Below are positions 33,982-63,067 of a stretch of 64,000 nt of DNA, piece after piece. The first letter of the stretch is position 1, and each line of letters begins with the position of its first letter. A program made the position numbers and the translations under genes. A model generated the notes under the pieces. It had not been told where the DNA came from and searched no databases. It saw only the letters and a program-made list of their open reading frames with translations. This stretch comes from a virus (Duplodnaviria; Caudoviricetes): positions 1-64,000 of IMG/VR virus record IMGVR_UViG_3300022746_000020, one strand, 5' to 3'.

Positions 33982-36900
33982 ATGGCTGGAACAAAAGTAC
34001 AAATCAAACGTAGCAGCGTTGCTGGGCGCGTCCCATCAGCTTCAGATATTGAAGTTGGACAGCTTGCTATTAACTTTACAGACAATCGGTTCTTTACAAA
34101 GGACGGGTCAAACACCGTCATTGATGTTTTTGGCCAAAGTCTAAATACAACAGCTAACGTCTCTTTCAGAGATGGTGCATTTGCTAATATTTCAGCTACC
34201 ACGCTTGCTGGTAACTTGGAATGGAGCTACATCACAACAAAACCAGATCTCAAAATCGACATCACAGGCGATGCGACTGGTACAAATACATTTGTTGATC
34301 TTGCAAATGGCGCGATCAACATCACACTTGCTAATACAGCTGTTACGCCAGGCACATATGGTAACAGCTCTGTAATCCCAGTACTCACGATCGATAGTAA
34401 GGGTCGTGTAACGGCTGCAACAACGAATGCGGTAGCTGGCATTACTGGATTCTCATACACATCATCGAACAACACGCTTGCTATTACTGCTGGCGACGGT
34501 TCGGTCTATAAAGCTACCGTCAATACAGTCAATACATTTGCAGTATCGAATACGTTACTTGTGACTGGTGTCGGTACGTTTTCCAACGATGTAATTGTTT
34601 CTGGTAACCTAGTTGTTTCTGGTACAACAACGTACATTAATACGACAGAGCTAAACATTGGCGACAATATCATTTCGCTCAATGCTGATTTAACAGGCAC
34701 TCCATCAGAAAATGCTGGCGTCTCTATCAACAGAGGAACATCCTCTAATGTAGCTTTGTTGTGGGATGAATCGGTAGATGCTTGGACATTTACTAACGAC
34801 GGCTCTACTTACTTCAAGATCGCGAGCAACACGGATGTTGATGCTGCATACGCCAATGCTGCAAGCTATGCTGATGCTAAGGCTGCAAATGCATATTCCA
34901 ACGCAGTAAGCTATACGGATACAAAAGCCGCTGCTGCATATTCTAATGCGACGAGTTATGCAGACACGGTAGCAGCTACATCATATGCTAACGCTACATC
35001 TTATGCTGATACTGTTGCTGCAACATCTTATGCAAATGCAACGAGCTATACGGATACAGTAGCAGCTACAGCGTATTCTAATGCAGCTTCATATGCAGAT
35101 ACAAAGGCTGCAGCGGCTTATTCGAACGCAGTGTCGACAGCATCAGCTGATGCGACAGACAAGGCATCTAATGCTTATAGCAATGCTGTAAGTTTTGCTA
35201 CTGCTGCAGCAAGTGCTGCTTACTCGAATGCAACCTCGTACGCTGATACAAAGGCTGCTGCCGCATACTCGAACGCTGTATCTACAGCAGCAACAGACGC
35301 TACCAATAAAGCAGCCAACGCATACTCCAACGCTATAAGCTATGCTGCTTCGATAGCTGCTACAGCATATTCAAATGCCGTATCTACAGCAGCAACAGAT
35401 GCGACAATACTAGCAACAGATGCGTACAATTCTGCTGTAAGTGCTGCAGCATCTGATGCATCTAGCAAGGCAGCGACTGCTTACTCAAACGCAGTATCGA
35501 CTGCATCGGCCGATGCTACTTCGAAGGCTGCTACGGCTTATTCGAATGCTGTATCTACAGCAGCAACAGACGCTACCAATAAGGCAGCAAATGCATATTC
35601 GAATGCAATTGCATACGCTGCTTCCAATTCATATGTCAATTCGACGTTTGCTCCTCTTGCAGGTGCAACGTTTACTGGATCTGTAACTTTCGCTAACACA
35701 GTAGCGTTTGGCAACACACGGATTACTGCTAATGGTGGTGTAGGCACATCTGGTCAAGTGTTGATGTCTGGTGGTGCAAGCGGCAATGTATATTGGTCGA
35801 CAGTATCGCTGACTGATCTTAATACAACATACACATTATCGACAGCAGCAAACACAGCATCGGCTAACATCGTTTTAACTGGTTCTGATTCATCGACGAA
35901 TACAGTTAAAATCATTGGTGCTGGTGGCCTCAATGTTAGCTCGAATGGTACAGTAATCACACTTGATGGTTCTAGTATCACTGGAGGTGGTGGAAGCAGT
36001 AACAGTTTCGGTACGTTCATCGTAGCTGGCCAAGCAAACGTAGTTGCAGATCAAGCAAATGACACATTGACGCTTGTTGCTGGTAGCAATATGTCGATTA
36101 CGACTAATGCTACGAGTGGCGCAATCACATTTACTTCGACTGCAAGTGGTGGTGGCGGTGCGCTTGGTAACAACGTCGGCAATGCGTTTATATCGGCGCG
36201 TGATAATTTCCTTGGCAACGGATCAAATACAGCATTCACGCTGTCGCAAACGGCAACGTCGAATACAATCCTGGTTCTCGTTGAAGGCTTGGTACAATTC
36301 CATAACGAAGATTATGACGTATCTGGCACAACACTGACATTTACGACTGCTCCAGTAAACAACGAAGCAATTGAAGTCCTTCATATATCTGGTGCGGCGA
36401 TCTATCGCTTCTCGCAATATGGAGCAATTGATAGCTTTACTGGTAACGGAAGCAATACAGGATATACACTATCCAGAACTGCCAATACTAGCACAGCAAC
36501 AGTCTACTTGGATGGTTTGCTGCAGGATCCTTCGACTGACTTCTCGATTAGTGGTACTGCTCTTACATTCACAACTGCACCTCTGAGCGGCGAAAGCATA
36601 TTGGTATATCATGTTGATAGCGCAGCAACTGCTCTACCTTCAGCAGCGATTACGAGCTCGGATACATTTACTGGCGATGGTACAACTACTGCATTTACGT
36701 TGACAGCCACAGCGAATAGTACGACTAGCTTTGTGACAATCAACGGTATGCTCCAACGCTATACGACGGATTATAGCGTAACAGATTTAACGCTGACGTT
36801 TGTCGATGCTCCACCGAGCGGTGCATCGATCCAATCGTTAAGATTGTCAGGAGCAATAGGCGCTTCTTATAAGAGCGTAGTCGCAAATGGCGTAACAGTA

Positions 36901-37203
36901 ACTGCTCCAACATCGGACGCTGTCCTTAATCTAGCAGCTGGTTCGGGTGTATCATTATCTGCGAATGCATCTACATCTACGGTAACTATCGCTGCGACGG
37001 CGGTAACGAAACAATCGCTAACTGGTAATGGATCGAACACGATCTTTACGTTGAGCTCCAGCACATTTTCTGATAATATTCTGGTATTCGTTGATGGTAC
37101 ATACTTCCATCCAGACGAAGACTATACAGTTTCTGGTACTACTATTACATTTTCTTCAGCTCCGATTGCATCGGCTGAAATTAGAATTAGGTTTATTCGA
37201 TAA
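33982..37203 (+). CDS. Tail fibre trunk protein with AYSNA repeats and four C-terminal FxG(N/D)G Ig-like domains
   Basis: N-terminal VQIKRSSVAGRVPS..IEVGQLAINFTD fibre anchor; many AY(S/A)NA repeats; four ~65-aa (F/L)(T/L)G(N/D)G....(F/Y)TL...LTF..AP domains. Confidence 0.8.
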   Translation: MAGTKVQIKRSSVAGRVPSASDIEVGQLAINFTDNRFFTKDGSNTVIDVFGQSLNTTANVSFRDGAFANISATTLAGNLEWSYITTKPDLKIDITGDATGTNTFVDLANGAINITLANTAVTPGTYGNSSVIPVLTIDSKGRVTAATTNAVAGITGFSYTSSNNTLAITAGDGSVYKATVNTVNTFAVSNTLLVTGVGTFSNDVIVSGNLVVSGTTTYINTTELNIGDNIISLNADLTGTPSENAGVSINRGTSSNVALLWDESVDAWTFTNDGSTYFKIASNTDVDAAYANAASYADAKAANAYSNAVSYTDTKAAAAYSNATSYADTVAATSYANATSYADTVAATSYANATSYTDTVAATAYSNAASYADTKAAAAYSNAVSTASADATDKASNAYSNAVSFATAAASAAYSNATSYADTKAAAAYSNAVSTAATDATNKAANAYSNAISYAASIAATAYSNAVSTAATDATILATDAYNSAVSAAASDASSKAATAYSNAVSTASADATSKAATAYSNAVSTAATDATNKAANAYSNAIAYAASNSYVNSTFAPLAGATFTGSVTFANTVAFGNTRITANGGVGTSGQVLMSGGASGNVYWSTVSLTDLNTTYTLSTAANTASANIVLTGSDSSTNTVKIIGAGGLNVSSNGTVITLDGSSITGGGGSSNSFGTFIVAGQANVVADQANDTLTLVAGSNMSITTNATSGAITFTSTASGGGGALGNNVGNAFISARDNFLGNGSNTAFTLSQTATSNTILVLVEGLVQFHNEDYDVSGTTLTFTTAPVNNEAIEVLHISGAAIYRFSQYGAIDSFTGNGSNTGYTLSRTANTSTATVYLDGLLQDPSTDFSISGTALTFTTAPLSGESILVYHVDSAATALPSAAITSSDTFTGDGTTTAFTLTATANSTTSFVTINGMLQRYTTDYSVTDLTLTFVDAPPSGASIQSLRLSGAIGASYKSVVANGVTVTAPTSDAVLNLAAGSGVSLSANASTSTVTIAATAVTKQSLTGNGSNTIFTLSSSTFSDNILVFVDGTYFHPDEDYTVSGTTITFSSAPIASAEIRIRFIR
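34840..35630 (+). repeat. AY(S/A)NA coding repeat region (about 15-19 aa period)
   Basis: AAAYSNATSYADT / AYSNAVSTAATDAT units; the same units occur in the 40286, 46825 and 55687 proteins. Confidence 0.85.
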
Positions 37204-39842
37204 TGGGAATTAGAACACGTACAATTGCTGCCCAGTTAGCAACCAACTTTACTAACGCAGCGGCAACACAAACGCTGACGCAAACTGCAAACGTCGCCTT
37301 TGCGGGGATCACAACTGGTAATACTGTTGTTAACAACATGGTCGTTTCCGTTGGTGCTGCTGCATACGTCAATACAACGGCTGTATTTGTTGGCAACAGT
37401 ACTGTCAATAGTAGCATGACGTCGTCCTCACTACGAGTTGGTGGCACCGTTGTTGCCAACGGAGGACAAGGAACTGCTGGCCAAGTGCTGACGTCCGGCG
37501 GTACAGGAAACGTATATTGGGCCAATGCAGCTAGCGGTGGCGGTGGGGGTGGCAGCGGGTCTACAACAAACGCACTAACCATCGGTAACGGACTGTCTAC
37601 GCAAGATGGTGATAAGTTAGCAACATGGCTACCAACGGATAGTAATACGTCGGAGTACATGGGGATGTCGGTGGCCACAAATGGCACCTACTCTGTTGTG
37701 GCTGCTTCTGGTGCTAACGGTGGAACGGGTTATGTGTATGTATATCTGAACTCTACTGGCGTAATGCAGTATCGTATTGGGATTACTGGTACAATCTCAT
37801 TGGGCGCAAAAGTCGCAATCAACAGCAATAATATTATTGTAGTGTCCGAGACGGCATATAGCGGTAGCACTGGCCGCGTGTTTGTGTTCGATATGTCGAC
37901 GTGGCCTACGTATACGGGTTCATTGGTTTCAATTACGTCTGCGACCAATACACTTACTAATCCACAATCTAACAGCTATTACTTCGGCAACGCACTAGCA
38001 ATATCATCATCGTATATTGTTGTTGGGTGTTGGAATACTAGAGTATCTGGATATAGTAATGCGGGCGTCGTATATCTATATTCGATAACAGGTACTCTGA
38101 AATACATGATTACCGATCCCAGCGCATATAGTAACCCTTCCGGTGACTATTTTGGTTGGTCGGTGGGTATCAGCGGAAACACTCTGGTCGTCGGAGCGTT
38201 TAACGAAGGCAACAGCACACAGTCGGTCGATGGTGCTGTATATGTATTTAATATAGGCAGTTTCCCAGCGTACCCAGGGTCAACTGTTAACATTACGTCG
38301 TCTAATTATACAAGCTATGGGTTTGCTATAGCTGTTCCTGACCCGATCCTATACACGCAATCAAATATGGGGTATTCGGTTGCCACTAACGGAGTATATG
38401 TGATCGCAGGTGCTCCTGGGGCAAAGGGCAGCGTGCGACCTGGACAAGCATCAAAGCAAGGTGTAGGTGCAGTGTATGTGTTTGATGCTTCGTCTGGAGC
38501 ATTAGTATATAAGCTAAACTCGCCTAGCCCGATAGTTAATGCTGGCCAGGATTTTGGTACTGCAGTGTCGGTGTCTGGAAATAACTTATTAGTAGGAGAA
38601 CCCAACGATAATGCAGGCGGACAAGGGTGGCCTCTTCCAGGCATATCCTATATGTTCGACTTGGCAGACGGTAAGTTAAAGAAAACAATATTTTCACCAA
38701 ACTCTGCTGGAGAGCAGGGTGCTTCTGATAAGTTTGCTCGAGCTTTAAGCATGTCCGGCAACTATGCCGTTATCGGCGCACCATATGAAACCAATGCCAA
38801 CTATGTGACCGGAAGTGGCGTCACATACCTGTTTAATGTTAATAATACATTCAACGGCGGCACTGCTACCACAGTCGCTTTAGCCCCGACGTCGGTAGTG
38901 CCTGGCATTTATGGGGGTACTGATGGTACGTCATACATTAACGTACCACAAATGTCGATTGACTCATATGGTCGCGTTGTCTCAGTTACTAGCACACAAT
39001 ACACACCAACAGGCGGTTTGTCATCAGCATTTACGAGCGTAAAGATCGCTGGGCAGTCGTTGACTGCAATGGGCCCCGACATGTTTGAGCTTGTTGCTGG
39101 CAGCAATATAACATTGAGTGCCGACACGATGATGAAGACTATTACGATCAGTTCCACAGGTGGCGGTAGTTCTGGTGGCATTGGTGGTGGTGGAACGCCC
39201 TTCTTTGCTAACGCAGGACCTACTGCGATATCGTATAGTATGGGCGATGCGACAGTTACTATACCAGCTACGGCGCAGTGGCTGATACAACCGATGCCAC
39301 TTAACGAATCAACTGCTATGGTCGGGGGACCAGGACTTCCGCCATTCAACACAATAAACGGTCCCTATTCTGGCGCCTATGGTCCTAATGGAATGGTGTA
39401 TCCGTGGTATTCATCATCCAGCATTCAATCGGGCGCCACTCTCCACATCTCAACCAACATGTCGAATGGCGGAAACGGCACGATGGCGGTGGTTGGCTAT
39501 GGTTTAGCCAGCAGCACAAACCCCGCGATGATGCAATGTTGGTTCTCTGGAAGTGGTGGATCGGCTATGGGAGGTGACTTCTTTATTAGCAATATGCCGC
39601 AGATGAACTACGGCGCTTATATAAGCCAGCCGGATTACTTCTATGGTACAGTTTATTTGATGGGTGGTGGCGATCTATCTACATTCACGCCTGCACCTGG
39701 TGTCGTCATTTACTATAATACGACACTACAACAGCTGATGGTTAGAGTTCCTGGTTCGATCTGGTCGATGGGAGGCCTGATGGGGACCCTGTCTGGATAT
39801 AATGGTTCGTTTGGTTATTCTGGCTTCTACTTTGGAATTTAA
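37203..39842 (+). CDS. Fibre/adhesin with FG-GAP (integrin-like beta-propeller) repeats
   Basis: Repeats such as DYFGWSVGISGNTLVVGAF..GAVYVF, DFGTAVSVSGNNLLVGEP and YAVIGAP..GVTYLF. Confidence 0.8.
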   Translation: MGIRTRTIAAQLATNFTNAAATQTLTQTANVAFAGITTGNTVVNNMVVSVGAAAYVNTTAVFVGNSTVNSSMTSSSLRVGGTVVANGGQGTAGQVLTSGGTGNVYWANAASGGGGGGSGSTTNALTIGNGLSTQDGDKLATWLPTDSNTSEYMGMSVATNGTYSVVAASGANGGTGYVYVYLNSTGVMQYRIGITGTISLGAKVAINSNNIIVVSETAYSGSTGRVFVFDMSTWPTYTGSLVSITSATNTLTNPQSNSYYFGNALAISSSYIVVGCWNTRVSGYSNAGVVYLYSITGTLKYMITDPSAYSNPSGDYFGWSVGISGNTLVVGAFNEGNSTQSVDGAVYVFNIGSFPAYPGSTVNITSSNYTSYGFAIAVPDPILYTQSNMGYSVATNGVYVIAGAPGAKGSVRPGQASKQGVGAVYVFDASSGALVYKLNSPSPIVNAGQDFGTAVSVSGNNLLVGEPNDNAGGQGWPLPGISYMFDLADGKLKKTIFSPNSAGEQGASDKFARALSMSGNYAVIGAPYETNANYVTGSGVTYLFNVNNTFNGGTATTVALAPTSVVPGIYGGTDGTSYINVPQMSIDSYGRVVSVTSTQYTPTGGLSSAFTSVKIAGQSLTAMGPDMFELVAGSNITLSADTMMKTITISSTGGGSSGGIGGGGTPFFANAGPTAISYSMGDATVTIPATAQWLIQPMPLNESTAMVGGPGLPPFNTINGPYSGAYGPNGMVYPWYSSSSIQSGATLHISTNMSNGGNGTMAVVGYGLASSTNPAMMQCWFSGSGGSAMGGDFFISNMPQMNYGAYISQPDYFYGTVYLMGGGDLSTFTPAPGVVIYYNTTLQQLMVRVPGSIWSMGGLMGTLSGYNGSFGYSGFYFGI

Positions 39843-39844
39843 AA

Positions 39845-40273
39845 ATGGAATTATACATTCAATCTAATGTGACCGCATTTCCGACGGCGAGCATACTACA
39901 CGGCGATGTGGTTCGAGCAAGTATGATGTGGCCCAACGCCACATCTGAACAACTTACAGCCGCAGGTTATATTTCTGTAACTGAGCCCACCATGGCTCAA
40001 CCAGCAAATACTATATTAGTTGTCAATAACGACCACACTACTGCTTGGATGCCGACAGCCGACTATGAGGAGTCGGTATCGGTCCGAGTCGCGATCATTA
40101 CCATGCGTGCAAAGCGCAATAAACTACTATCGGATTGCGACTGGACACAAGGTAAGGATGTTCCTGATGCAGTGTCGTCGGCATGGGCTCCGTATAGACA
40201 GGCATTGCGTGATATTACTACACAGAGCGGGTTTCCGCAGAACATCGAGTGGCCAACTCCTCCACAACAATAA
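39845..40273 (+). CDS. Phage tail fibre assembly chaperone
   Basis: RAKRNKLLSDCDWTQ..D......W..YRQALRDIT.Q.GFP..IEWP.PP. Confidence 0.85.
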   Translation: MELYIQSNVTAFPTASILHGDVVRASMMWPNATSEQLTAAGYISVTEPTMAQPANTILVVNNDHTTAWMPTADYEESVSVRVAIITMRAKRNKLLSDCDWTQGKDVPDAVSSAWAPYRQALRDITTQSGFPQNIEWPTPPQQ

Positions 40274-40279: not shown

Positions 40280-40285
40280 CCAAGC

Positions 40286-41248
40286 ATGACACTCCAGATA
40301 AACTTAAAACAATTAAAAGCTGAAAGTGCTTCTAATAACTACGTGTTGACGTGGAGTAACGTCTCCAACTCATGGACGTCGTCGAATGCTACATCGCTGA
40401 TTGTTGCTGCCAACTCAACTGTCTCTGGTGTTGTTAGAATCCTCGATTCGTATGCCAATACGAGCACCAACATCGCAGCTTCTGTTAACTCTGTCAAGGT
40501 TGCATACGACACTGCAGTAACTGCTCAGAACATGGCATCGAATGCATATTCGAATGCAGCAACGCTTGCAGCATCAGCATATACAAACGCTGTCAGCTAT
40601 GCAGACACAAAGGCTGCTACTGCATACTCAAACGCAGTCGCATACGCAGCATCAAACACATACGTTAACTCAACATTCGCTCCTCTTGCTGGTGCAACTT
40701 TCACGGGCGCAATTGCTGCTGGTAATACAACTATTACAGGGTTCGCCAACGTCACAGGCACGTTGCAAGTTGGCGGACAAACGACAATTGGCGGTAACTT
40801 AGTTGTCAACGGTACGACCATCACAGTCAACACATCACAAATCAACGTCACAGATTCGTTGCTATATCTTGCTTCGAATAATGAAATCAGCGATTCGTTA
40901 GATATTGGTTTTGCTGCTCATTATAATGCAGGCGCTGGCGCTAACGGCCACACTGGATTGATTCGTTCAGCAACTACGAAAAAGTACTACCTATTTCAAA
41001 ACTATCAGCCAGAGTTCTATGCTAACAATAATATCGACGTAGCGAATACGTCGACCGGTATTCAGATGGCGGATCTCGTTGTCGGCAACTTTACCGCAAA
41101 CAACACACTTGCTGCTGGCAATACGACGATCACTGGTAGCTTGCGTGCTAATACAGGATTGCTGTCAGCTAATACGATTCAATTTAATGATGGATCACAA
41201 CAAACAACATACATCGATCCGATAGCGATGGCTATTGCCCTAGGATAA
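40286..41248 (+). CDS. Fibre hub protein, copy 1
   Basis: Tail-fibre repeat-like ANSTVSGVVRI..AASVNSVKVAYD, AYSNA repeats, shared 83-aa module, C-terminal IAMAIALG. Confidence 0.75.
   Translation: MTLQINLKQLKAESASNNYVLTWSNVSNSWTSSNATSLIVAANSTVSGVVRILDSYANTSTNIAASVNSVKVAYDTAVTAQNMASNAYSNAATLAASAYTNAVSYADTKAATAYSNAVAYAASNTYVNSTFAPLAGATFTGAIAAGNTTITGFANVTGTLQVGGQTTIGGNLVVNGTTITVNTSQINVTDSLLYLASNNEISDSLDIGFAAHYNAGAGANGHTGLIRSATTKKYYLFQNYQPEFYANNNIDVANTSTGIQMADLVVGNFTANNTLAAGNTTITGSLRANTGLLSANTIQFNDGSQQTTYIDPIAMAIALG
40841..41089 (+). repeat. Dispersed 249-nt coding repeat A (other copies 47380-47628, 56236-56484)
   Basis: Encodes INVTDSLLYLASNNE.SDSLDIGFAAHYN.GAGANGHTGLIRS..TKKYYLFQNYQPEF...MADLVVGN in three genes. 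Confidence 0.95.
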
Positions 41249-41255
41249 ATAAAAC

Positions 41256-41582
41256 ATGGCTTCTACATTCAAATCATCTGTCGCAAAATCTGTTGGTACG
41301 AGTGCTAACTCTGTATACACTGTTCCGTCGCTAACTACCACTACGGTGATTGGTTGGAACCTTTGCAACATCACATCGAATCCTGTTACTGTAGATCTAT
41401 ACTTCACAAGAAGTGCTGTCGATTACTACATCTTGAAGGGAGCTACTGTCCCACAAGGTGGTGCATTGGTTCCTGTTGGTGGAGATCAGAAATTGGTTCT
41501 CCAGGCAGCTGATGTATTGAAGGTAGTATCAGGTGCTGCTTCTGCGATTGATGCAACTGTTTCTTATCTCGAGACGACATAA
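41256..41582 (+). CDS. About 107-aa beta-rich adaptor-like protein, copy 1
   Basis: MASTFK...YTVP...NLCNI...YILKG..VP.GG.L...KLVL...D.LKV...S.LE; paralog of 47806 and 56665. Confidence 0.7.
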   Translation: MASTFKSSVAKSVGTSANSVYTVPSLTTTTVIGWNLCNITSNPVTVDLYFTRSAVDYYILKGATVPQGGALVPVGGDQKLVLQAADVLKVVSGAASAIDATVSYLETT

Positions 41583-42628
41583 TGAGCTACATCGGAAATA
41601 GCTTAACACAACAATCATTTACAGGGGGCGTTGATCAGTTTAATGGCAACGCTTCTAATACTGCGTTTGGTCTAACGAGAACGATCAATACAAACTTCGA
41701 CGTCGATGTGTATGTCGAAAACGTATGGCAAAGACCCGGCGTAGGATATAACGTATCAGCAAACACAATTACATTTACATCAGCACCTTCTGCTGGTTCT
41801 AATAACGTAGTTGTAGTCTACAAGAATTTTACTGCAACGAGCGTTGTTCCCATTTCAGGATCAGTCACAACTACTACTTTAGTTGATGGTGCTGTTACGC
41901 CTGCAAAGCTGTCTACAGGCGCACCAAGTTGGGATAGCAGCAGCAACCATGCAGTTGCAGGCAACCAGACAATAGCAGGCAATCAGACAGTTGGCGCAGC
42001 TGGATCGATACTTGCTGAAAATAACCTCCGCTTCAAGTCTGCTGGTGATAGTTACGTCGACCACAATACGGTTGGCAGAAACATCAACTTCCGTGTGTCT
42101 AACGGATCCGCTCTCGATACAAATCCGCTCTCGATATTGTCTACTGGTGTAGTGTCCTTACCTTTAGGACAACTCAAATTTCCAGTCACACAAAACGCAT
42201 CCTCGGATGCAAACACATTAGATGATTATGAAGAAGGCACTTGGACGCCGGTAGTCACTCGCGCCACTACTGCTCCGACACTCACAACAGACGTACTGCA
42301 AGGTACCTATATTAAAGTGGGTCGCCTGGTTCATATATCAGTAAACCTACACGTAGCGTCGGTGTCGGCGGCTGGTGCTGGGTATAATTTAATCAGTGGG
42401 CTTCCTTTTCCAGCAGACAATTCTGCTGCCATCTGGAGCACACTCGGCGGAAGCGTCACATACAACAATGCGTTTGCGACCAGTGTCGCCACGGGATTGA
42501 GCTTCGGAGCTACGCTGACAGGGATATCTTTCCTACCATCAGGAAACTCGCGAACGCAGAGTGAAATTAATGAAAGTTGGACGTCTGGATACTTGGTATT
42601 CGCTGCTACATACCGCACAACCCAGTAA
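41582..42628 (+). CDS. Fibre protein (MSYIG class; one FxGN domain; LDDYEEGTW tip)
   Basis: MSYIGN; FNGNASNTAFGL; NTLDDYEEGTWTP...YIKVGRLVH...GLPF. Confidence 0.75.
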   Translation: MSYIGNSLTQQSFTGGVDQFNGNASNTAFGLTRTINTNFDVDVYVENVWQRPGVGYNVSANTITFTSAPSAGSNNVVVVYKNFTATSVVPISGSVTTTTLVDGAVTPAKLSTGAPSWDSSSNHAVAGNQTIAGNQTVGAAGSILAENNLRFKSAGDSYVDHNTVGRNINFRVSNGSALDTNPLSILSTGVVSLPLGQLKFPVTQNASSDANTLDDYEEGTWTPVVTRATTAPTLTTDVLQGTYIKVGRLVHISVNLHVASVSAAGAGYNLISGLPFPADNSAAIWSTLGGSVTYNNAFATSVATGLSFGATLTGISFLPSGNSRTQSEINESWTSGYLVFAATYRTTQ

Positions 42629-43610: not shown

Positions 43611-43955
43611 ATGGGACATTTTGCAAAAGTAGTCGACAACACTGTAGTTCAGGTAATCGTAGCAGAGCCAGAGTTTTTCGATTCGTTCATAGACACTTCT
43701 CCTGGCGAATGGATACAGACATCCTATAATACAAGAGGGGGTATCCACATCCACGGAGGGACGCCTCTTCGCAAGAACTTTGCTGGAGTAGGATATACAT
43801 ACGACAAATTAAAGGATGCATTCATTCCCCCTCAACCATATCCAAGCTGGACGCTCGATGACGACACGTGTATGTGGAACCCGCCAATCGACAAACCTCA
43901 AGATGGGCAAAGATATGCGTGGGATGAGCAAACACAACAATGGAACGAAGTCTAA
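43611..43955 (+). CDS. Small partner/chaperone-like protein
   Basis: MGHFAKV...WIQTSYNTRGG...LRKNFAGVGYTYD...DAFIPPQPYPSW; strong SD GAGG. Confidence 0.7.
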   Translation: MGHFAKVVDNTVVQVIVAEPEFFDSFIDTSPGEWIQTSYNTRGGIHIHGGTPLRKNFAGVGYTYDKLKDAFIPPQPYPSWTLDDDTCMWNPPIDKPQDGQRYAWDEQTQQWNEV

Positions 43956-54614: not shown

Positions 54615-55370
54615 ATGGCACTAAGTAAAATCACAGCAGATTCGCTTCAAGCAAACGTAGTAGCGAGTGCTATTGGATATGTTCCAGCTAACGCAGCTGG
54701 CGATAACTTCACTGGCCAAGTCAAGGTATCTGGCCCTATGGCCAACATTGGCCCTACGTCTAAGGGTGTGTATATTGGATATGATCCAAACGCAGCAAAC
54801 AACGTTGGCATCGAAATTGTATCCGGACCAGTCGGTATATCGTGGGTAGACTTTGGTAATGGTGATGGATCGGATTTCAGAGGACGCATTGGATATGATT
54901 CGAATACCAATGCGCTCTTCCTATGTACAAACACTCTTAATAGATTAAACATCGATTCAACAGGCCGCATGACGGTGCCGAACCAGCCGATGTTTTCAGG
55001 TATCAGAAACACGACACCAACAACACTGGCGTCTGGAAACGTCGTACTACACAACGTCACCGTAACAGATGTTGGTGGTTATTATAGTGCTGCAACCGGT
55101 AGATTTACATGCCCAGTTGCTGGCAGATATATGGTAACGATTGGCGGCCATGCTGAAAACTCTCAGCCGACTTCACATCAAATCAGAAAGAACGGCACAA
55201 CGGTAGCATATGAGTATGGGTCGATGCCTTCTGGAAGCTATGTTGCTATGTCTAGAACCATCATTCTAACTTGTGCAGCTAATGATTATATTGACCACTA
55301 TATCTCGACTGGTACGTTCTGGTGCGGTGATGGTTCTGGCCTCACAATGACAGTCATGCTAGTTTCTTAA
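54615..55370 (+). CDS. C1q-like tip protein (MALSK class)
   Basis: MALSKI; PNQPMF...YSAATGRFTCPVAGRY. Confidence 0.75.
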   Translation: MALSKITADSLQANVVASAIGYVPANAAGDNFTGQVKVSGPMANIGPTSKGVYIGYDPNAANNVGIEIVSGPVGISWVDFGNGDGSDFRGRIGYDSNTNALFLCTNTLNRLNIDSTGRMTVPNQPMFSGIRNTTPTTLASGNVVLHNVTVTDVGGYYSAATGRFTCPVAGRYMVTIGGHAENSQPTSHQIRKNGTTVAYEYGSMPSGSYVAMSRTIILTCAANDYIDHYISTGTFWCGDGSGLTMTVMLVS

Positions 55371-55686: not shown

Positions 55687-56661
55687 GTGCGCAAGATAGA
55701 CTTTTCAAGACTAAAAACGACTGAGGCGGTTCCGTCTGGCTTTCTGTCGTTAATGTCGACGTCGCTTTATAATGCAAACTCAACAACGAGTGGTATTGTA
55801 AAGCTGGTAGACACTACGTCTAACACTAGCGCAACAGTTGCCGCTTCAGCAAACGCCGTTAACCAGACATTAGTCAGCGCTCAGATTCTCGCTGGCTCTG
55901 CATATGCCAATGCCGTCACTTACACCAATTCGTTAGGCGCGACGGCATACGCTAACGCCGTTGCATATGCAAACACAATCGCAGCGACAGCGTACGCGAA
56001 TGCAGCAAGCAGAGCAGCAGATGCATTTACGAACGCTGTTGCATATGCAGCATCGAACACGTACGTCAATACACAGCTCGGTCTCAAGGCAGATCTGGCT
56101 GGTGCGTCATTCACGGGTGCCGTTTCCATCGCAAATAGCGCAAACGTTTCTGGTTCGTTACAAGTTGGCGGTGTGCTAACAGTAGCAGGAAACTTGGTAA
56201 TTAATGGAACGACAACGACTGTTAACACAAGTTCGATCAACGTTACCGATTCGTTGCTATACCTTGCTTCCAACAATGAAGTATCTGATTCTTTAGATAT
56301 TGGTTTTGCTGCTCACTATAATAATGGTGCTGGCGCGAATGGTCATACTGGTTTGATTAGAAGTTCACTCACGAAAAAGTATTACCTATTTCAAAACTAT
56401 CAACCAGAGTTCTTCGCAAATAACGTAGTAGATGTTGCTAATACTGCAACTGGTATTCAGATGGCAGACTTGGTCGTTGGTAACTTTACTGCAAACAATA
56501 CACTCGCTGCCGGTAACACAACAATTACAGGCACCCTAAATACTTCCGGATTACTTACCGCTAATGCGATCACAGTATCGAATGTTAGCGCGACTCAAAC
56601 TAACTTACAAGTAGACGCGGCCGGAACAGCAACTGCTATGGCTATCGTCTTCGGTGGATAA
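55687..56661 (+). CDS. Fibre hub protein, copy 3
   Basis: GTG start; ANSTTSGIVKL..AASANAV fibre repeat, AYANA repeats, repeat A, C-terminal TAMAIVFGG. Confidence 0.75.
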   Translation: MRKIDFSRLKTTEAVPSGFLSLMSTSLYNANSTTSGIVKLVDTTSNTSATVAASANAVNQTLVSAQILAGSAYANAVTYTNSLGATAYANAVAYANTIAATAYANAASRAADAFTNAVAYAASNTYVNTQLGLKADLAGASFTGAVSIANSANVSGSLQVGGVLTVAGNLVINGTTTTVNTSSINVTDSLLYLASNNEVSDSLDIGFAAHYNNGAGANGHTGLIRSSLTKKYYLFQNYQPEFFANNVVDVANTATGIQMADLVVGNFTANNTLAAGNTTITGTLNTSGLLTANAITVSNVSATQTNLQVDAAGTATAMAIVFGG

Positions 56662-56664
56662 ACA

Positions 56665-56991
56665 ATGGCAAACACGTTCAAAAATAAAGGCCTAGCATTA
56701 ACAACGACGTCTAGAACGGACTTGTATACTTGCCCAGCTAACACAGCTGCAGTTATTCATACACTAAACATTGCAAACGTCAATGGCGTGTCTAGCTCTT
56801 CGATTACGATTGAAGTATATGATACATCCGCAGCTGCATACTATAAAATTGGATACTTGATTCCAGTTCCAGGCGGATCGTCATACTTCTATGATAAGCC
56901 TTTGAATTTGGAAGCAGGGGACAAGGTATCGTTAACTGCGACTACAGCGAACTACTTGGAAGCGTTTGCATCTATTCTTGAAATTGCATAA
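56665..56991 (+). CDS. About 107-aa adaptor-like protein, copy 3
   Basis: MANTFKN...LYTCP...IANV...VPGGS...KPLNLEAGD...SILEI. Confidence 0.7.
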   Translation: MANTFKNKGLALTTTSRTDLYTCPANTAAVIHTLNIANVNGVSSSSITIEVYDTSAAAYYKIGYLIPVPGGSSYFYDKPLNLEAGDKVSLTATTANYLEAFASILEIA

Positions 56992-57001
56992 GGAGCGCTA
57001 A

Positions 57002-58777
57002 ATGGGATATGGTGGCAAAATAGCCTCGCGCTCAGGTGACGTAAGAAGATTCAACTTTACAGGCAATGGATCGAACACAGCTTTCGATCTTGGTTTCTCG
57101 CCTGCAACACAAAACCAACTAATCATCACGATCAACGGCGTCGTTCAACACTACGATGCGTTCTCTGTTTCAGGCTCGGTAGTAACATTCACTGGCACGC
57201 CTGCGGCTGGCGATTATATTCAAGTCACAGCAGTTGTAGACGCTATCGGTGTGACTGGTATTCCAGACGGTGCGATCGCAAACGTATCTTCTTTGAAAGT
57301 CACAACTACGCCGGTGTTAATTGGTAATGCGGTTGGTACCTTCAGCAATCCAATCATCCAAGCAGCAAGCACAGCTAACAGTTGGATTCAAATTAACGCA
57401 CAGAATTTAAATAACGGCAACAATGCATCAACTGATGCTATTCTTGCTCGTTCTGATGGTAATGATAATGCTGGATACATCGATATGGGTATCAACAGCA
57501 ATACGTACAGCCAAGCTGCATACAGCATTATGACGCCGAACAGCGGCTATGTGTTTGTTAATGGTGGTGACTTGGTGCTCGGTACTCAGACTGCTCACAA
57601 CATCATTTTCCATACTGGCAATACGACCGCCAGTTCAGAGAGGCTGCGAATCACATCCAATGGCGCTATCGCGTTCCCAGACGGCACACAATTCAGCACT
57701 GCCAGTTCATTCGGAATGCGCAATCGTGTTATCAATGGTGCGATGGCATTCGATCAGCGCGCGTCGGGTAACCCACAAACAGGTGTCACTGGCGGGGCAG
57801 GATGGTATTTGGCGGACCGGTTTCGTATAGGTGGTTCGGCGCTCACGACAGGACGACTTACTTTCCAACAAGTCGTTGACGCCCCAGCTGGATTTAAATA
57901 TTCTGGCAAAATCACAACCACGGCCGCACAGACGACAACAACTGAAACTATTGTTTTATCGCACATCATTGAGGGGTTAAACACTTTAGATCTTGGCTGG
58001 GGAACAGCCAGCGCTGCTAACGTCACGTTGTCGTTTTGGGTTAAGGCATCATTAACTGGCACCTACCCTGTGGCGGTACGTTGCGATAATGCAAACGCAA
58101 CCTACGTTGCAACGTATACAATTAATAGTGCAAATACGTGGCAATATATAACGTTGAATATTCCTGGCCCAACATTTGGAACGTGGAGCACGACTAACGC
58201 AAATGGTATCCGTATCGATTGGGATTTGGGGTCTGGAACGAATGGGTCCTCATCTTCCGCTGGTAATGTAACTACGACTCCAAATGCATGGCAGACATAC
58301 GATGCGTTTAGAACGTCAACTAGTGTGCAGCTACAAGCTAACTTGAATGCGACATGGCAGATCACAGGCATTCAGTTTGAAAGGGGTAATGTGGCTACTC
58401 CATTTGAAGCGAGATCGTTCAGCACAGAACTGGCTTTGTGCCAGCGCTACTATCAAATCATAGCAGCAGGTTCGGGTGCACCCATTGGTATAGGTGCATT
58501 TGTTGGAACTACCGATTTCAGATTGTCGTATATGTTCCCTGTACAGATGAGAGCAGCACCTAGCGGCATAACGTGCGTCAGTGGTACTGGTTACTACCGC
58601 TTCTATTGGGGCAGTGGCGTAAGCTCGACGTTCAACGGATTTGTGCTAGACACTGCATCCCCACAAGGCATATCAATGTACACTGGTGGTGGTTTGTCGG
58701 GTGTTACAGCAGGCCAGAGTGGGTTCTGTTTAACAAACAATACAGCTGCGTATTTGGCAGCTAATGCGGATCTATAA
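57002..58777 (+). CDS. Fibre protein (MGYGG class; one FTGNG domain; repeat B; NRVING tip, copy 2)
   Basis: FTGNGSNTAFDL; GMRNRVINGAM; TGIQFERG..AT.FE.R...ELALCQRYY. Confidence 0.75.
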   Translation: MGYGGKIASRSGDVRRFNFTGNGSNTAFDLGFSPATQNQLIITINGVVQHYDAFSVSGSVVTFTGTPAAGDYIQVTAVVDAIGVTGIPDGAIANVSSLKVTTTPVLIGNAVGTFSNPIIQAASTANSWIQINAQNLNNGNNASTDAILARSDGNDNAGYIDMGINSNTYSQAAYSIMTPNSGYVFVNGGDLVLGTQTAHNIIFHTGNTTASSERLRITSNGAIAFPDGTQFSTASSFGMRNRVINGAMAFDQRASGNPQTGVTGGAGWYLADRFRIGGSALTTGRLTFQQVVDAPAGFKYSGKITTTAAQTTTTETIVLSHIIEGLNTLDLGWGTASAANVTLSFWVKASLTGTYPVAVRCDNANATYVATYTINSANTWQYITLNIPGPTFGTWSTTNANGIRIDWDLGSGTNGSSSSAGNVTTTPNAWQTYDAFRTSTSVQLQANLNATWQITGIQFERGNVATPFEARSFSTELALCQRYYQIIAAGSGAPIGIGAFVGTTDFRLSYMFPVQMRAAPSGITCVSGTGYYRFYWGSGVSSTFNGFVLDTASPQGISMYTGGGLSGVTAGQSGFCLTNNTAAYLAANADL

Positions 58778-58779
58778 TC

Positions 58780-59436
58780 ATGGCACTGACTAAAATAACA
58801 GCAACAAATATTGGATACACACCCGCTAACAAGGCAGGCGATGTTCTAACTGGTGCTCTTACAGTGCCAAACTTGGGTGTTGGTAGCGTAGCCGATTCTA
58901 ATACTACGAATAGAACAATCACATATCAGAATGCTGGAAAGAACTGGTATGTTGGATTGCGCGGCGACACATCTAATGCGTGGTCAATTGCTGATGATTC
59001 TGCACATCGAATGATGGTCGACGCTAACGGTCGCATCACGATGCCATACCAACCAAGCTGGTGCGTTGAGTATTATGGTATGACTGTGTCCGCAAGCACG
59101 ACATATAACTATACTGGTGGCACTGTGTTCATTAACAACGGTTCCTACTACTCAACGAGCACCGGCAGGTTCACTGCTCCCGTTGCAGGATACTACTTGG
59201 TGAGCGCATCGATTGAGCAGAGCACTTCGTCGGGCACGACTGGGTCAGTAGTAGTAAACAAGAATGGGGCTAGCCAGTTTCAAGCGCTCGCGTATAGCGC
59301 CATATACAACAGCGGTTCTTTGACTGGTATAATTTACTGCGCGGTAAATGATTACCTCACATTAACATCATATGGCAACAACGGCCTTTCTTACAACGTA
59401 TACACAACACGCTTCACAGGCCATTTGATAGGATAA
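58780..59436 (+). CDS. C1q-like tip protein (MALTK class)
   Basis: MALTKI; MPYQPSW...YSTSTGRFTAPVAGYY...FTGHLIG. Confidence 0.75.
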   Translation: MALTKITATNIGYTPANKAGDVLTGALTVPNLGVGSVADSNTTNRTITYQNAGKNWYVGLRGDTSNAWSIADDSAHRMMVDANGRITMPYQPSWCVEYYGMTVSASTTYNYTGGTVFINNGSYYSTSTGRFTAPVAGYYLVSASIEQSTSSGTTGSVVVNKNGASQFQALAYSAIYNSGSLTGIIYCAVNDYLTLTSYGNNGLSYNVYTTRFTGHLIG

Positions 59437-59440
59437 TACA

Positions 59441-60733
59441 ATGAGCTACTCAGGCGTACAACCAACATTCGGGACGTTCCCAAGCGATCTATTCACAGGT
59501 AATGGATCGAATACTGTTTTCACATTGTCGTCCGTTCCAGGAAATAAAGCAGCGTTGCTTATTTCGATCGATGGTGTTCGTCAGCACACCGACACATATT
59601 CGTATTCTGCTAACACACTATCATTCAGTGAAGCTCCTCCTAGCGGAGCTATCATCGAAGCGATCAATATGGGCTCTCGTGCCGATGTTGTCGTTACTGA
59701 TGGCGTATATCGCAAGTCTCAATTTACAGCAACGGCCGCTCAAACAAACTTCAACATTGCTACTGGATATACAATCGGCTTTGTTGATGTATATTTGAAC
59801 GGTATTCGTTTAGTTGTTGGCGATGACTATACAGCAAATGATGGTTCGACAATCATTCTAGCAGTTGCTGCAGCTGCAGGTGATGCCGTCGAAGTTGTTG
59901 CATATGGTACGTTCAATGTTGCTAATGCATTGCTAAAGTCTGGCGATACGATGTCAGGCAACCTAGTTGTTTCTGGCACATCGATTATGGCGACGCCGCA
60001 CGCGATTGCCAATACAACAGGCAACACTGTAGTTTTTGCCAACACTGGTGTAGTCACATTCAATGCAAACACCATACACGTTGGTGCTGCTACATTTAGT
60101 AATGCCGTATCGATAACAAGCACTATTACTGAAACTGTAAGTCCGCAGACTGCAATTGAAACGACGGTTCTTCAGATGACCGATAGTAGTGCTATCAATT
60201 ACTTGGGTAGTATACGCACATATAATAACGGCGGATACAATCAGTCGCTTCGTATATACACGACAAACTTGGGTGGAGCAAAATCAAACGAAATCAAGGC
60301 CATGGAACTAAACGGCAATGGTTACGTCACTATGCCATACCAACCAGCATTCAGTGCTGTAAAAACAGCAAACGTTGTCAATGGAACTGGCACATACACA
60401 AGCTGGCCAACTGTGCATGTTAATGTAGGAAACAGCTTCAATGCCACTACTGGTGTGTTTACAGCTCCTATTGCAGGCGTATATCAATTTACCGTGTCTG
60501 CTATGGCTAGCGGCACTGGTTATATTAACGTATTCATTTATAAAAATGGCACGAGTGTAGTGGGCGGAGGGGCACGTCCAGCCAACTCCACATACGATCA
60601 GGCAGAACGTACTATAATGCTATCGCTAGCTGTCGGAGATACGGTATATGTATCAGATGGGGTCGGCGGCAACCAGGCTGTATTCAGCGATAGTAATGGT
60701 TGGTTGTCGTTCCTTGGAAGGCTTGTAGGATAA
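59441..60733 (+). CDS. Fibre protein (MSYSG class; one FTGNG + one TATAxQ domain; C1q-like tip)
   Basis: FTGNGSNTVFTL; TATAAQTNF..VDVYLNGIRL; MPYQPAF..FNATTGVFTAPIAGVYQF. Confidence 0.75.
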   Translation: MSYSGVQPTFGTFPSDLFTGNGSNTVFTLSSVPGNKAALLISIDGVRQHTDTYSYSANTLSFSEAPPSGAIIEAINMGSRADVVVTDGVYRKSQFTATAAQTNFNIATGYTIGFVDVYLNGIRLVVGDDYTANDGSTIILAVAAAAGDAVEVVAYGTFNVANALLKSGDTMSGNLVVSGTSIMATPHAIANTTGNTVVFANTGVVTFNANTIHVGAATFSNAVSITSTITETVSPQTAIETTVLQMTDSSAINYLGSIRTYNNGGYNQSLRIYTTNLGGAKSNEIKAMELNGNGYVTMPYQPAFSAVKTANVVNGTGTYTSWPTVHVNVGNSFNATTGVFTAPIAGVYQFTVSAMASGTGYINVFIYKNGTSVVGGGARPANSTYDQAERTIMLSLAVGDTVYVSDGVGGNQAVFSDSNGWLSFLGRLVG

Positions 60734-60736
60734 TAT

Positions 60737-61948
60737 ATGGCACTAACAAAAGTAACATCTAACGTATTAGGCAATAGCGCAGTCACGTCTGCGAAGATCG
60801 CTCTATCAAATACTGGGTTGACGTTCAACGATGGCAGCAACCAAATGACTGCTGCATCCGGATTCGGTTTCAAGAACCGCATCATTAATGGTGCGATGAT
60901 GATCAATCAGCGAGGTGTGACTACATTGACTGTTAACAACGGCAATTCTTCGACTGTTGGTGGCACATACTTTCAGGACCGGTTCATACTACCTAGCGCC
61001 ACCGCAGTGTCGCAATATTCAACCACACCCTCAGCATTTACTTGTGCTGTAACAAACAACGCTGCGTCGATCGGATATCCGTTCTGTTTTTCGATTACAG
61101 TCAATACGGCAGGTGTGGGCGGAACGAACCGAGACATTTCGTTTATATCTCATAAAGTGGAGGTCGGAAACCTCAGCGATCTTGCGTACGGAACATCCAA
61201 TGCGCAACCAGCTACACTTTCGTTTTGGATTCGCTCGAGTCTCATCGGCCAGAGATCCCTATTCATATACAGTCCCATTACAAATCGATATATTCAGCCG
61301 TCGTTTACGATAAACGCTGCGAATACTTGGGAATATAAGACGATTACGATTCCAGGGGACACGACGGCATCATTTGGCACAACGATGAACGCTGAGGCCA
61401 TTCGGATTGAATTCCGCACATCCTGTTCCGGAACGACTCTGGCAGCAGCAACCAACACATGGGCAACGCTAAGCAGTCAACGTGCTGTAACTGGGGATGT
61501 TGATTTCTTCGGTACAGTCGGAGCAACACTAGATATTACAGGCATTCAATTTGAAAAAGGCCCATCAGCAACATCGTTCGATCATCGCCCATATGGATTA
61601 GAATTGTCCTTGTGTCAAAGATACTATGCTACCATCAATAACCCAGGAAACGTTTCCTATGCTAGATATTCATTAGGACTATGCCGCTCGACTGGAACGT
61701 CGTCGATGGACCTATACGTACATCTGCCAGTTCCAATGAGAACGACGCCAGTATTCAGTACGACAGGCAGCTTCGTTATGGATCCAGGAGCAATCGCTGT
61801 AAGTAGTATCAGTCTATATTCCGCTATTGCAGGATACCAGTACATAGCATTGGCGCCAGTGACTGCATCAAGCATGTCTGTTGGCCCAATATCACTTGTT
61901 CAGAATGCAACTACACAATCATCGTTGAACTTCTCAGCGGAACTATAA
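60737..61948 (+). CDS. Tip protein, NRIING domain copy 3 (MALTK class)
   Basis: MALTKV; GFKNRIINGAM; TGIQFEKG..ATSFDHRPY..ELSLCQRYY. Confidence 0.75.
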   Translation: MALTKVTSNVLGNSAVTSAKIALSNTGLTFNDGSNQMTAASGFGFKNRIINGAMMINQRGVTTLTVNNGNSSTVGGTYFQDRFILPSATAVSQYSTTPSAFTCAVTNNAASIGYPFCFSITVNTAGVGGTNRDISFISHKVEVGNLSDLAYGTSNAQPATLSFWIRSSLIGQRSLFIYSPITNRYIQPSFTINAANTWEYKTITIPGDTTASFGTTMNAEAIRIEFRTSCSGTTLAAATNTWATLSSQRAVTGDVDFFGTVGATLDITGIQFEKGPSATSFDHRPYGLELSLCQRYYATINNPGNVSYARYSLGLCRSTGTSSMDLYVHLPVPMRTTPVFSTTGSFVMDPGAIAVSSISLYSAIAGYQYIALAPVTASSMSVGPISLVQNATTQSSLNFSAEL

Positions 61949-61951
61949 AAT

Positions 61952-63067
61952 ATGTCAAGAGCAAGACAAGTATCACAATTAATTGGTGCATCTAATACTC
62001 ATGTAGTAACAACGCCAGCAACGTTTAGCAATACAGTCACTGTTGCTAACTCAGGCATTACGTTCGGCGATGCTACAGTTCAGAACACAGCTGCTAGTGG
62101 ATTTGGCTTTAAGAACCGCATCATCAATGGTGCGATGGTGATCGACCAGAGGAATGGTGGGGCCAGTGTTGCATATGGATCCACTACCACTGCTGGTAAC
62201 TATTATGGTTATAACGTCGACCGTTGGTGGGCACAAAGCTACTCTACAACCGCAGGTAACGGAGCAGCCTTTACGGTACAACAGTCAAGCGTAGCGCCGA
62301 CTGGAATTCCTAGTTCCATCGTTGCTACCGTCACCAGCTCGCAGACAACGCTTCAGAGCGACAGTTTATACCGCATACAACAAGTTATAGAAGGGTATAA
62401 TGTCGCTGATATTGGATTTGGATCTGCTACTGCATCAGCCGTTACCCTATCGTTCTGGGTCAGATCCAATCTTACAGGCACATTCACTGGCGTATTAGGC
62501 AACGACGTTGACTACGCCTACCCATTTACATACACAATCAATGCCGCAAATGTGTGGCAGCAGATCGTGATTACTATTCCAGGAGCGACAGCTGGTACGT
62601 GGCTAAAGAACAACGGCAAGGGAATACTGATTGCGTGGTGTCTTGGTGCACATACATCGCGCCTTGGTACTGCTGGTGCGTGGGTCGCTAGTGCAAACTA
62701 CCAAGGGGCTTCTGGTCAAACGAACTTCATGGCGACAGTTGGTAATACGTTCTACATCACAGGCGTTCAACTAGAAAAAGGCTCAACAGCGACATCATTT
62801 GACTACCGTCCATATACCACTGAACTCCAGCTGTGTCAGCGTTATTACGAAGTTGGTGACAACCAACTATACCTTCCAGTAGTCGCTGGCAACGCTGTTG
62901 CAGCTATAAATTTCAAGGTTACGAAACGAGCATCGGCATCCATTACTACTGTATATGGTAATGGTTCAGCATCGAATGTGGCTGGCTCTACCAACGGAAT
63001 AACTTGGGTTTACTATGGTACATCCCTAGTCCAGGTTAACTCTTGGACCGCTTCGGCTGAACTATAA
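61952..63067 (+). CDS. Tip protein, NRIING domain copy 4 (MSRAR class)
   Basis: MSRARQVSQLIG; GFKNRIINGAM; TGVQLEKGSTATSFDYRPY..ELQLCQRYY. Confidence 0.75.
   Translation: MSRARQVSQLIGASNTHVVTTPATFSNTVTVANSGITFGDATVQNTAASGFGFKNRIINGAMVIDQRNGGASVAYGSTTTAGNYYGYNVDRWWAQSYSTTAGNGAAFTVQQSSVAPTGIPSSIVATVTSSQTTLQSDSLYRIQQVIEGYNVADIGFGSATASAVTLSFWVRSNLTGTFTGVLGNDVDYAYPFTYTINAANVWQQIVITIPGATAGTWLKNNGKGILIAWCLGAHTSRLGTAGAWVASANYQGASGQTNFMATVGNTFYITGVQLEKGSTATSFDYRPYTTELQLCQRYYEVGDNQLYLPVVAGNAVAAINFKVTKRASASITTVYGNGSASNVAGSTNGITWVYYGTSLVQVNSWTASAEL

Follow-up and report, generated by a model that had tools for sequence, protein, structure and literature searches.

Do the ~30 genes of a 29-kb tail-fibre cluster in an uncultured phage encode separate adhesins, or the parts of one branched structure? 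The cluster occupies positions 33,982 to 63,067 of the window, i.e. the whole 64,000-nucleotide stretch analysed here, which is the first part of the 74,655-base IMG/VR record IMGVR_UViG_3300022746_000020 (CheckV completeness 43%). We consider it probable, on computational support, that the cluster specifies one hierarchical branched apparatus for receptor binding, in which N-terminal plugs of one set of proteins would dock on socket domains of their carriers. Genes are referred to below by their first position in the window, and all those named in a first-pass annotation made from the sequence alone proved to be open reading frames (ORFs) on the + strand with the same starts.

In the proposed tree a trunk fibre (33982) would end in four sockets with an FxG(N/D)G signature (F), of the T7 gp17-N, T4 gp10 and CBA120 XD kind. 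Three hub fibres would plug into trunk sockets 1-3, and the FG-GAP protein 37203 into the divergent fourth. At the third level the ..AIALG-type tail of each hub, together with a 108-residue jelly-roll protein, would form a joint for up to two branch proteins that start MxYxG. The branch proteins would have their own head plus sockets, of which F would take tips with MALxK-type starts (K), a second domain with a TATAxQ signature (T) would take tips with MSxxR-type starts (R), and a C-terminal W socket would take a set of three tips. In all, one tree would display 16 different heads, and our count of head-terminated proteins agrees with the 16 first proposed. The branch-to-tip levels are well supported by computation; pairings other than R on T, and the tree as a whole, we infer from counts, homology or gene order.

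Sockets and plugs match in number. A hidden Markov model (HMM) for F was built from nine FxG(N/D)G copies and a separate HMM was used for T; the start patterns were MxYxG (B), MALxK-type (K) and MSxxR-type (R). The first-pass annotation had matched domains to start peptides module by module, and with HMMs and patterns its counts stand: FxG domains number 2, 1 and 2 in the three modules, as do MA(L/I)xK starts, and TATAxQ domains number 0, 1 and 1, as do MSxxR starts. The F HMM finds one copy each in 41582, 45143, 48126, 57002 and 59441, and the T HMM matches 51598 and 59441 only; a weak match of the F HMM to the T domain of 59441 (independent E-value, i-E, 0.06) suggests that F and T share one fold. 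The trunk does end in four FxG(N/D)G domains, as first described, at residues 739-808, 815-884, 892-961 and 1009-1072 (nucleotides 36196-36405, 36424-36633, 36655-36864 and 37006-37197; i-E 3e-31 to 1e-26). Among the 73 non-overlapping ORFs of the 74.6-kb record the start patterns match cluster genes only, apart from one internal false match in 63114, and among 4157 ORFs of all loci the B, K and R patterns find 282, 160 and 56 true N-termini as against 21, 6 and 5 after residues 2-40 were shuffled.

The classes also occur together in other phages, among them a complete relative with the same cluster (G001; 234,864 bases, terminal repeats). ORFs of the fetched loci were classed by four HMMs (F, T, the 108-residue protein and W) and the three start patterns, and 55 non-redundant modules that had at least 6.5 kb downstream or were bounded by the next module were counted, duplicate contigs being merged by sequence key and two artefact rows (L122 and L127) left out. 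Thirty modules have both T and R and 20 have neither, with T only in 4 and R only in 1; the co-variation of TATAxQ and MSxxR that had been proposed as a check is found, then, in 50 of the 55. Three of the T-only modules (L076, L107 and L185, the fourth being L191) have R-like starts, judged by eye, outside the pattern, and L282, the one module with R only, is arranged like CRP-9, whose T domain sits in the hub. Two loci that agree in branch start and last tip have either both a T domain and an R-like tip (L053) or neither (L056). Likewise the equality of F and K numbers first seen in the window extends to 45 of the 55 modules (28 at 2:2, 5 at 1:1 and 12 at 0:0). On the best tree of the 108-residue protein at least 13 changes of state are counted for T and at least 14 for R, and 32 distinct R starts of ~12 residues precede several unrelated head families. 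The pairing of F with K is suggested by counts and homology.

In their modelled fold the FxG and TATAxQ domains fall into the established class of branching and anchor domains, in keeping with their earlier assignment as acceptors. An AlphaFold2 (AF2) model of 59441 residues 1-175, made from a 25-row alignment (mean predicted local distance difference test score, pLDDT, 75.7), has a disordered start (residues 1-10) followed by two tandem beta-sandwiches. Its best Foldseek match in the PDB is the N-terminus of the CBA120 tailspike protein TSP4 (7rej_A, E 8e-7), and the next are the baseplates of Klebsiella phage KP1 (9f4b_FA, E 4.9e-5) and T4 (5iv5_AC, a 602-residue chain, E 3.3e-3); global template modelling scores are low (0.3) because the two domains differ in orientation. 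Single-domain matches are to T7-type fibre N-termini (7ey9_a, 8dsp_E, 8vbx_S, 7y22_e and 9d84_B) from T7, PhiM1, Kp7 and Shigella phage B2. By sequence, the trunk tandem matches residues 83-244 of PDB 9k4a_A, a Klebsiella K1 depolymerase (E 1.5e-5), and Pfam PF03906 (Phage_T7_tail) recognizes 59441 residues 19-86 (29.2 bits, cut-off 25.2). The trunk, 41582 and 45143 have no PF03906 match at E <= 0.1, and 48126 and 57002 have none at E <= 0.05; these five F-bearing proteins are joined to 59441 by the custom F HMM only.

A predicted complex bears directly on the pairing of R with T. Three copies of 59441 residues 1-175 were modelled with three of 61952 residues 1-40, both as alignments, and the interface score ipSAE came to 0.81, 0.80 and 0.81 as against 0.00 for the best of 3 controls, with partner pLDDT of at least 87 and 100% contact agreement between runs. 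The mark used is reached by 58 of 80 solved complexes and by 2 of 110 mismatched pairs, a calibration that holds roughly here, custom alignments having been used. Residues 1-13 of 61952 are placed on residues 118-125, 128-129, 141-142 and 145-149 of 59441, all within the T domain (residues 90-161) and none in F. The first-pass annotation had looked to trimer predictions of every start peptide against every domain for class-specific docking; this single pair was the one run, and in it the expectation stands, the MSxxR peptide of 61952 lying on the TATAxQ and not the FxG domain of 59441. The model thereby supports binding of the R plug to the T socket.

The joint between hub and branch is seen in gene order. 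The three hubs are indeed paralogous (pairwise identity 53-61%), and each hub gene is followed, as first described, by a small gene, of 108, 106 and 108 codons in turn, and by exactly two M-x-(Y/L/W)-x-G proteins. The small proteins (41256, 47806 and 56665) are 30-47% identical, and the AF2 model of 41256 (pLDDT 94.6) is a 9-strand jelly roll. Its closest folds are the nucleoplasmin-like HDT1 (Z 10.3), the trimeric cement protein KHP40 (Z 10.1) and Ena pilus subunits (Z 9.7), with C1q heads at only Z ~7.5; Foldseek against the PDB gave no match at E <= 0.001, and sequence searches of solved structures gave no useful match either for this protein or for hub 1. As modelled, the protein is nearest to small oligomeric jelly rolls and of no specific family. 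Its gene serves excellently as a marker and is widespread: 355 relatives, nearly all of 108 residues, were found in a 5.8-billion set, at least 533-571 among the IMG/VR matches listed and at least 496 among the metagenome matches listed, and there are weak but clear matches in 34 cultured-phage records, which include CRP-9, HMO-2011, pelagiphages, S-TIM5, Rhizobium phages and an Ochrobactrum Kyanoviridae phage. In BFVD 103 matches reach E <= 0.001, some of them named virion structural protein. Among 197 distinct copies the adjacent upstream gene ends ..AIALG-like in 161 of 181 cases and the adjacent downstream gene starts MxYxG in 130 of 157. Synteny thus supports a joint of hub tail, 108-residue protein and MxYxG start, the part assigned to the 108-residue protein being suggested by gene order and fold. 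A chaperone role was judged less likely for this protein, since its relatives are annotated as virion or structural proteins, which is annotation and not proof. No gp35 or gp36 family was named in the Pfam and PHROG scans of the cluster proteins, in which no search with the T4 proteins themselves was made.

The W socket would be a further type of connector. The C-terminal YTLTTGKNG..GP..VTVP domain, which had been noted in 48126 alone and tied to the three tips of another class that follow it (48719, 49558 and 50279), is confined to that protein within the window and belongs to a 47-residue family with 27 ORFs at first pass. W is found with any plug and socket, in the combinations B+F+W, B+T+W, B+W alone (67-72 residues) and K+W alone (69 residues), and in locus L002 it is placed behind an MGIRTRTIAAQ start; the mini-adaptors of 67-72 residues consist of a plug and a W socket and nothing else. 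The link of one W domain to three tips holds widely, in 21 of the 22 complete cases as classed by eye (15 further rows, cut or unclear, were set aside), the exception being L076 with one tip. The starts of these tips fall into three recurring subclasses, and the three of module 2 are also found in G001 and L015. A heterotrimeric head made up of these W tips was weighed and not adopted, as their heads belong to different families.

The cultured phage HMO-2011 provides a compact example. Its genes run in the order fibre gp43 (ending ..AMAIAL), the 108-residue gp42, a B+F+W adaptor (149 residues) and three tips, then a K tip (MALTQV), a B+T+W adaptor (153 residues), three more tips and an R tip (start MSKAAELAALIG). 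One F with one K, one T with one R, and two W with 3+3 tips agree with all three rules, which are consequently open to bench testing.

Several results weigh against the tree as proposed. Under the strict pattern F and K numbers differ in 10 of the 55 modules, several of which have K-like starts outside the pattern. A tip does not always follow its proposed carrier: 54615 in module 2 is one case, and module 3 of G001 has its two K genes in between the branch genes; pairing cannot reliably be read from gene order. The HMM finds no T domain in the trunk, although the gene after it (37203) has an R-like start, MGIRTRTIAAQ, which by eye resembles MSxxR and not the hub starts; the gene at this position in G001 starts MSKASRLSVFIT and is R-class by pattern. 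The reading does not explain why one W socket should take three different partners. On the 108-residue protein tree the independent pairs on supported branches number only 3 (median sign-test p 0.25), and with 3, 3 and 2 supported pairs none of the independent-pairs tests can reach significance; with so few, the co-variation is treated as a strong description and not as formal proof. Mantel comparisons of plug and socket distances give no preference to the proposed pairs, the values being 0.51 for R-T, 0.50 for R-FA and 0.57 for R-FB (18 modules) and 0.39 for K1-FA, 0.35 for K1-FB, 0.04 for K2-FA and 0.10 for K2-FB (24 modules). The modelled interface on the T domain is not more conserved than the rest (mean 0.67 vs 0.75; one-sided Mann-Whitney p 0.85), and the passing score of the complex may lean on likeness to solved gp10/XD complexes. 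Finally, in T7 the PF03906 domain anchors the fibre to the tail, and homology to a domain known as the anchor of the attached fibre does not fix the direction of its use.

The upper levels of the tree face the most serious alternative, that baseplate attachment of the hubs, and perhaps of 37203, is independent of the trunk and that four domains against three hubs plus one is coincidence; this we regard as possible but doubtful. The trunk, whose N-terminus reads MAGTKVQIKRSS, was found, with its 4 : 3+1 layout, in the window and two close relatives only: a homologue search led to G001, to a 105-kb contig cut off ahead of its modules, and to one match of 27% identity that lacks the system. Moreover ~9 kb of other genes separate trunk from hub 1 in G001, and in the podovirus relatives, which lack a trunk, the primary fibre has a tail-binding start of its own. 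(Enzyme-like genes adjoin the trunk in G001 and L296.) Independent attachment fits less well with the hubs themselves, which are 320, 325 and 324 residues long in the window and only 63, 90 and 152 in G001, the homologue of hub 2 in L015 likewise having 90; the shaft is missing and the N-terminal ~30 residues and C-terminal tail are retained, as would be expected if the two ends are connectors. An h-x-K/R-h motif, recognized by eye, is common to the hub N-termini and the K plugs, and G-x-x-Q is found in trunk domains 1-3 (as G-[LM]-x-Q) and in the branch F domains, unlike trunk domain 4, which reads DGTYFHP there and could represent a third subtype, a pattern that matches three hubs and one further protein. 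(Hubs and trunk have Ala/Tyr/Ser-rich 'AYSNA' shaft repeats in common.)

A second alternative concerns the branches: F could be the branch protein's own anchor on the joint of hub and 108-residue protein, in the manner of T7, with K tips bound elsewhere and only T and W true sockets. The membership of 59441 in PF03906, the position of F at the N-terminus of every F-bearing branch, the fold matches to the N-termini of fibres mounted on podovirus tails (7ey9_a, 8vbx_S and 7y22_e) and the origin of the F-to-K pairing in counts would all agree with it. We nevertheless hold it quite unlikely, at least as the only role of F. Proteins after the 108-residue gene may be without F yet retain the MxYxG-type start (51598 has T only, and there are W-only mini-adaptors), and F is therefore not their anchor; the K number tracks F through 0, 1 and 2 and does not track the number of branch proteins; four F copies at the C-terminus of the trunk cannot anchor the trunk; and branch B of L097 (169 residues) and HMO-2011 gp41 (149 residues) have little beyond F+W, yet a K tip is present.

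The last alternative, that branch, tip and helper genes are exchanged as a cassette so that the counts match by descent without docking, the proteins attaching independently or as alternatives, draws on the paralogy of the three modules, the single layout of most modules elsewhere, the scarcity of phylogenetically independent pairs and the missing pair-specific co-evolution signal, but is very unlikely in the face of an R plug that is the same on unrelated heads, adaptors that are only plug and socket, hubs that lose a whole shaft and retain both ends, R following T through its many changes of state, and a complex that passes with the fold of known branching domains.

The branched plug-and-socket reading has clear precedents. 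In G7C, K1-5, KP32 and PhiK64-1 the secondary spikes dock on gp10-like domains by conserved N-terminal peptides or domains (PMC6872550), and gp10-like domains also dock secondary spikes in CBA120 (PMC11414711); systems of anchor, branching domain and peptide include G7C gp66-gp63.1, K1-5 gp37 with gp46/gp47, and the Klebsiella KP32 and KP34 groups (PMC6872550, PMC13352976). The principle of a branching domain plus a conserved N-terminal peptide is thus already known, as are multi-spike trees. Like G7C, K1-5 and KP32, the present system has a carrier with a small beta-sandwich branching domain (a computed fold match), short N-terminal peptides on the secondary receptor-binding proteins (7 residues minimum there, ~12-14 here) and truncated adaptors that retain docking parts only. 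It differs from them in having on one protein at least three socket kinds (F, T and W), each with a plug class of its own, and in a separate joint of fibre tail peptide and free 108-residue jelly roll, a proposed four levels and 16 heads where those podoviruses have two proteins, uncultured environmental hosts, and heads that are C1q-like, jelly-roll, FG-GAP or glycine-rich and not depolymerases.

In the CBA120 and S117 (Ackermannviridae) tailspikes TSP1-4, tandem gp10-like domains recruit different partners through XD2-XD2 and XD3-TD1 contacts (PMC11414711; PDB 7rej, 7rfo), and CBA120 TSP4 is the best structural match of the F+T tandem model. There, however, partners dock by whole N-terminal domains (TD1, XD2) where short peptides are proposed here, and four spikes form two levels, with no 108-residue connector or W domain. 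The jumbo Klebsiella phages come nearest in scale. PhiK64-1 has one anchor, four peptides and five gp10-like domains (PMC6872550), PhiK64-1/RaK2 have 11 receptor-binding proteins, and phiKp24 is 'hyperbranched' (PMC6872550, PMC10253068, PMC9700779); the scale of at least 11 such proteins and the re-use of anchor, peptide and gp10-like units are similar, whereas the lineages differ, the heads are depolymerases, and no class-by-class pairing rule was found stated in the accessible text. The PF03906 domain of 59441 and the T7-type N-termini among the fold matches likewise link the F domain to T7; here, unlike T7, there are also four copies at the trunk C-terminus and a number that tracks K tips.

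What would be new relative to Klebsiella and E. coli gp10-like branching is a set of several socket classes with their own plugs and two further connector types. The literature searched contained no description of this docking code in aquatic phages, of a multi-class socket and plug system, a three-way W socket or a tail-peptide/jelly-roll joint, or of the spread of these joints and sockets through aquatic podoviruses and T4-like phages. It is a tentative suggestion, for which we would claim no great likelihood, that many phages of water and soil, with HMO-2011-type podoviruses at one end of the range and T4-like myoviruses at the other, have one general docking code in common. Its rules would be F with MALxK, T with MSxxR, W with three ordered plugs, and the ..AIALG tail plus 108-residue jelly roll with MxYxG; if true, the branching tree and the place of every head would be computable from the genome alone, and the W socket would be a new asymmetric three-way junction that holds three different adhesins at fixed positions. 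For uncultured phages, host range has long been a blind spot; with classes readable from sequence, it would become possible to predict for many environmental phages how many receptor-binding heads there are, in which order and at which positions. One 12-residue plug on unrelated head families would also be a simple mechanism for head exchange between phages.

Table 1. Genes of the fibre cluster with their proposed roles (positions in the window)
Feature	Positions	Strand	Remarks
Trunk fibre	33982..37203	+	1073 residues, four C-terminal FxG-type (F) socket domains
FG-GAP repeat tip protein	37203..39842	+	879 residues; Pfam FG-GAP_2, E 1.7e-30
Tail-fibre assembly chaperone	39845..40273	+	142 residues; Pfam Phage_tail_APC 74.7 bits (cut-off 26.6); PHROG tail fibre assembly families
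Hub 1	40286..41248	+	320 residues; start MTLQINLKQLK, end AMAIALG
Module 1 jelly-roll protein	41256..41582	+	108 residues
Module 1 branch protein	41582..42628	+	MSYIG start, one F domain, own head
Module 1 K-class tip	42637..43599	+	MAIDKL start, glycine-rich head; Pfam Gly_rich_2, 47.7 bits
Small protein	43611..43955	+	114 residues; phrog_7759, E 2.4e-32
Module 1 K-class tip	43959..44843	+	MALTKL start, 294 residues
Module 1 branch protein	45143..46603	+	MSLIG start, one F domain, C1q-like head
Hub 2	46825..47802	+	325 residues; start MSKLRIEKLK, end NAIIYG
Module 2 jelly-roll protein	47806..48126	+	106 residues; 47% identical to 41256
Module 2 adaptor	48126..48719	+	197 residues; MAWIG start, F at residues 16-85, C-terminal W socket at residues 150-197, headless
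Three W-class tips	48719-49282, 49558-50076, 50279-51433	+	module 2
Small helper gene	49279-49554	+	among W-class tips of module 2
Module 2 branch protein	51598..52821	+	MSYLG start, one TATAxQ (T) domain at residues 14-85, own head
Module 2 R-class tip	53134..54312	+	start MSNSRTLSDFIG, 392 residues
Module 2 K-class tip	54615..55370	+	MALSKI start, C1q head; Pfam C1q 36.2 bits
Hub 3	55687..56661	+	324 residues; start MRKIDFSRLK, end AIVFGG
Module 3 jelly-roll protein	56665..56991	+	108 residues
Module 3 branch protein	57002..58777	+	MGYGG start, one F domain, '..AEL'-family head
Module 3 K-class tip	58780..59436	+	MALTKI start, 218 residues
Module 3 branch protein	59441..60733	+	MSYSG start, F at residues 14-83, T at residues 90-161, C1q head (Pfam C1q 61.5 bits)
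Module 3 K-class tip	60737..61948	+	MALTKV start, 403 residues
Module 3 R-class tip	61952..63067	+	start MSRARQVSQLIG, 371 residues

Some entries of Table 1 need qualification. The start of 42637 is an internal ATG of an ORF listed as 42577, and the Pfam C1q match of the 45143 head (23.4 bits) is marginally below the cut-off of 23.7. The product of 43611-43955 is a probable dedicated helper of the glycine-rich tip. Proteins of its MxHFAKVxDGKV type (~115 residues, phrog_7759) recur in the fibre modules of L076, L142 and G001; in the window and G001 the gene directly follows a tip ending ..GSG(I/V)VIITY.., in L076 it follows a tip ending ..SGTYTA, and in L142 it precedes a K tip. The products of 49279-49554 and 54312-54611 have a common C-terminal YPSIxEQLDxLxHxG motif (44% identity over 43 residues) and resemble the ..KYPK-ending helper genes placed after tips in many relatives; by analogy they are probably tip-specific assembly chaperones.

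Upstream of the trunk, positions 28364-33907 encode an 1847-residue protein, apparently a separate giant fibre, with dozens of GNTT(I/V)TGFANV-type repeats and a C-terminus reading ..IDCGTF; it has an 'IGF..HY....H.G..R......Y.LF..Y.PE' domain in common with the hub. The T4-type genes that lie 3' of the fibre cluster code for terminase large subunit, tail sheath, tail tube and portal, with GIY-YIG endonucleases between, and the sheath is 47% identical to its counterparts in Stenotrophomonas phage DLP_6 and Caulobacter phage Cr30; on this sequence evidence the phage is a T4-like myovirus. Searches of the cluster and hub 1 against 50,697 phage records, by near-identity and by protein, gave no match.

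GIY-YIG-type homing-endonuclease-like genes occur at 63114-63683 and at 65609-66310 of the record, where they separate the fibre cluster from the neck and terminase genes, and the 63114 product has its opening residues, MAVPNSRQ, in common with the next structural gene, 63670. In L002 (10001-11454) a GIY-YIG endonuclease gene is found directly 3' of the hub gene and both proteins end in ..IALG (MSIALG and AAIALG), as if insertion of the endonuclease had duplicated the 3' end of the hub.

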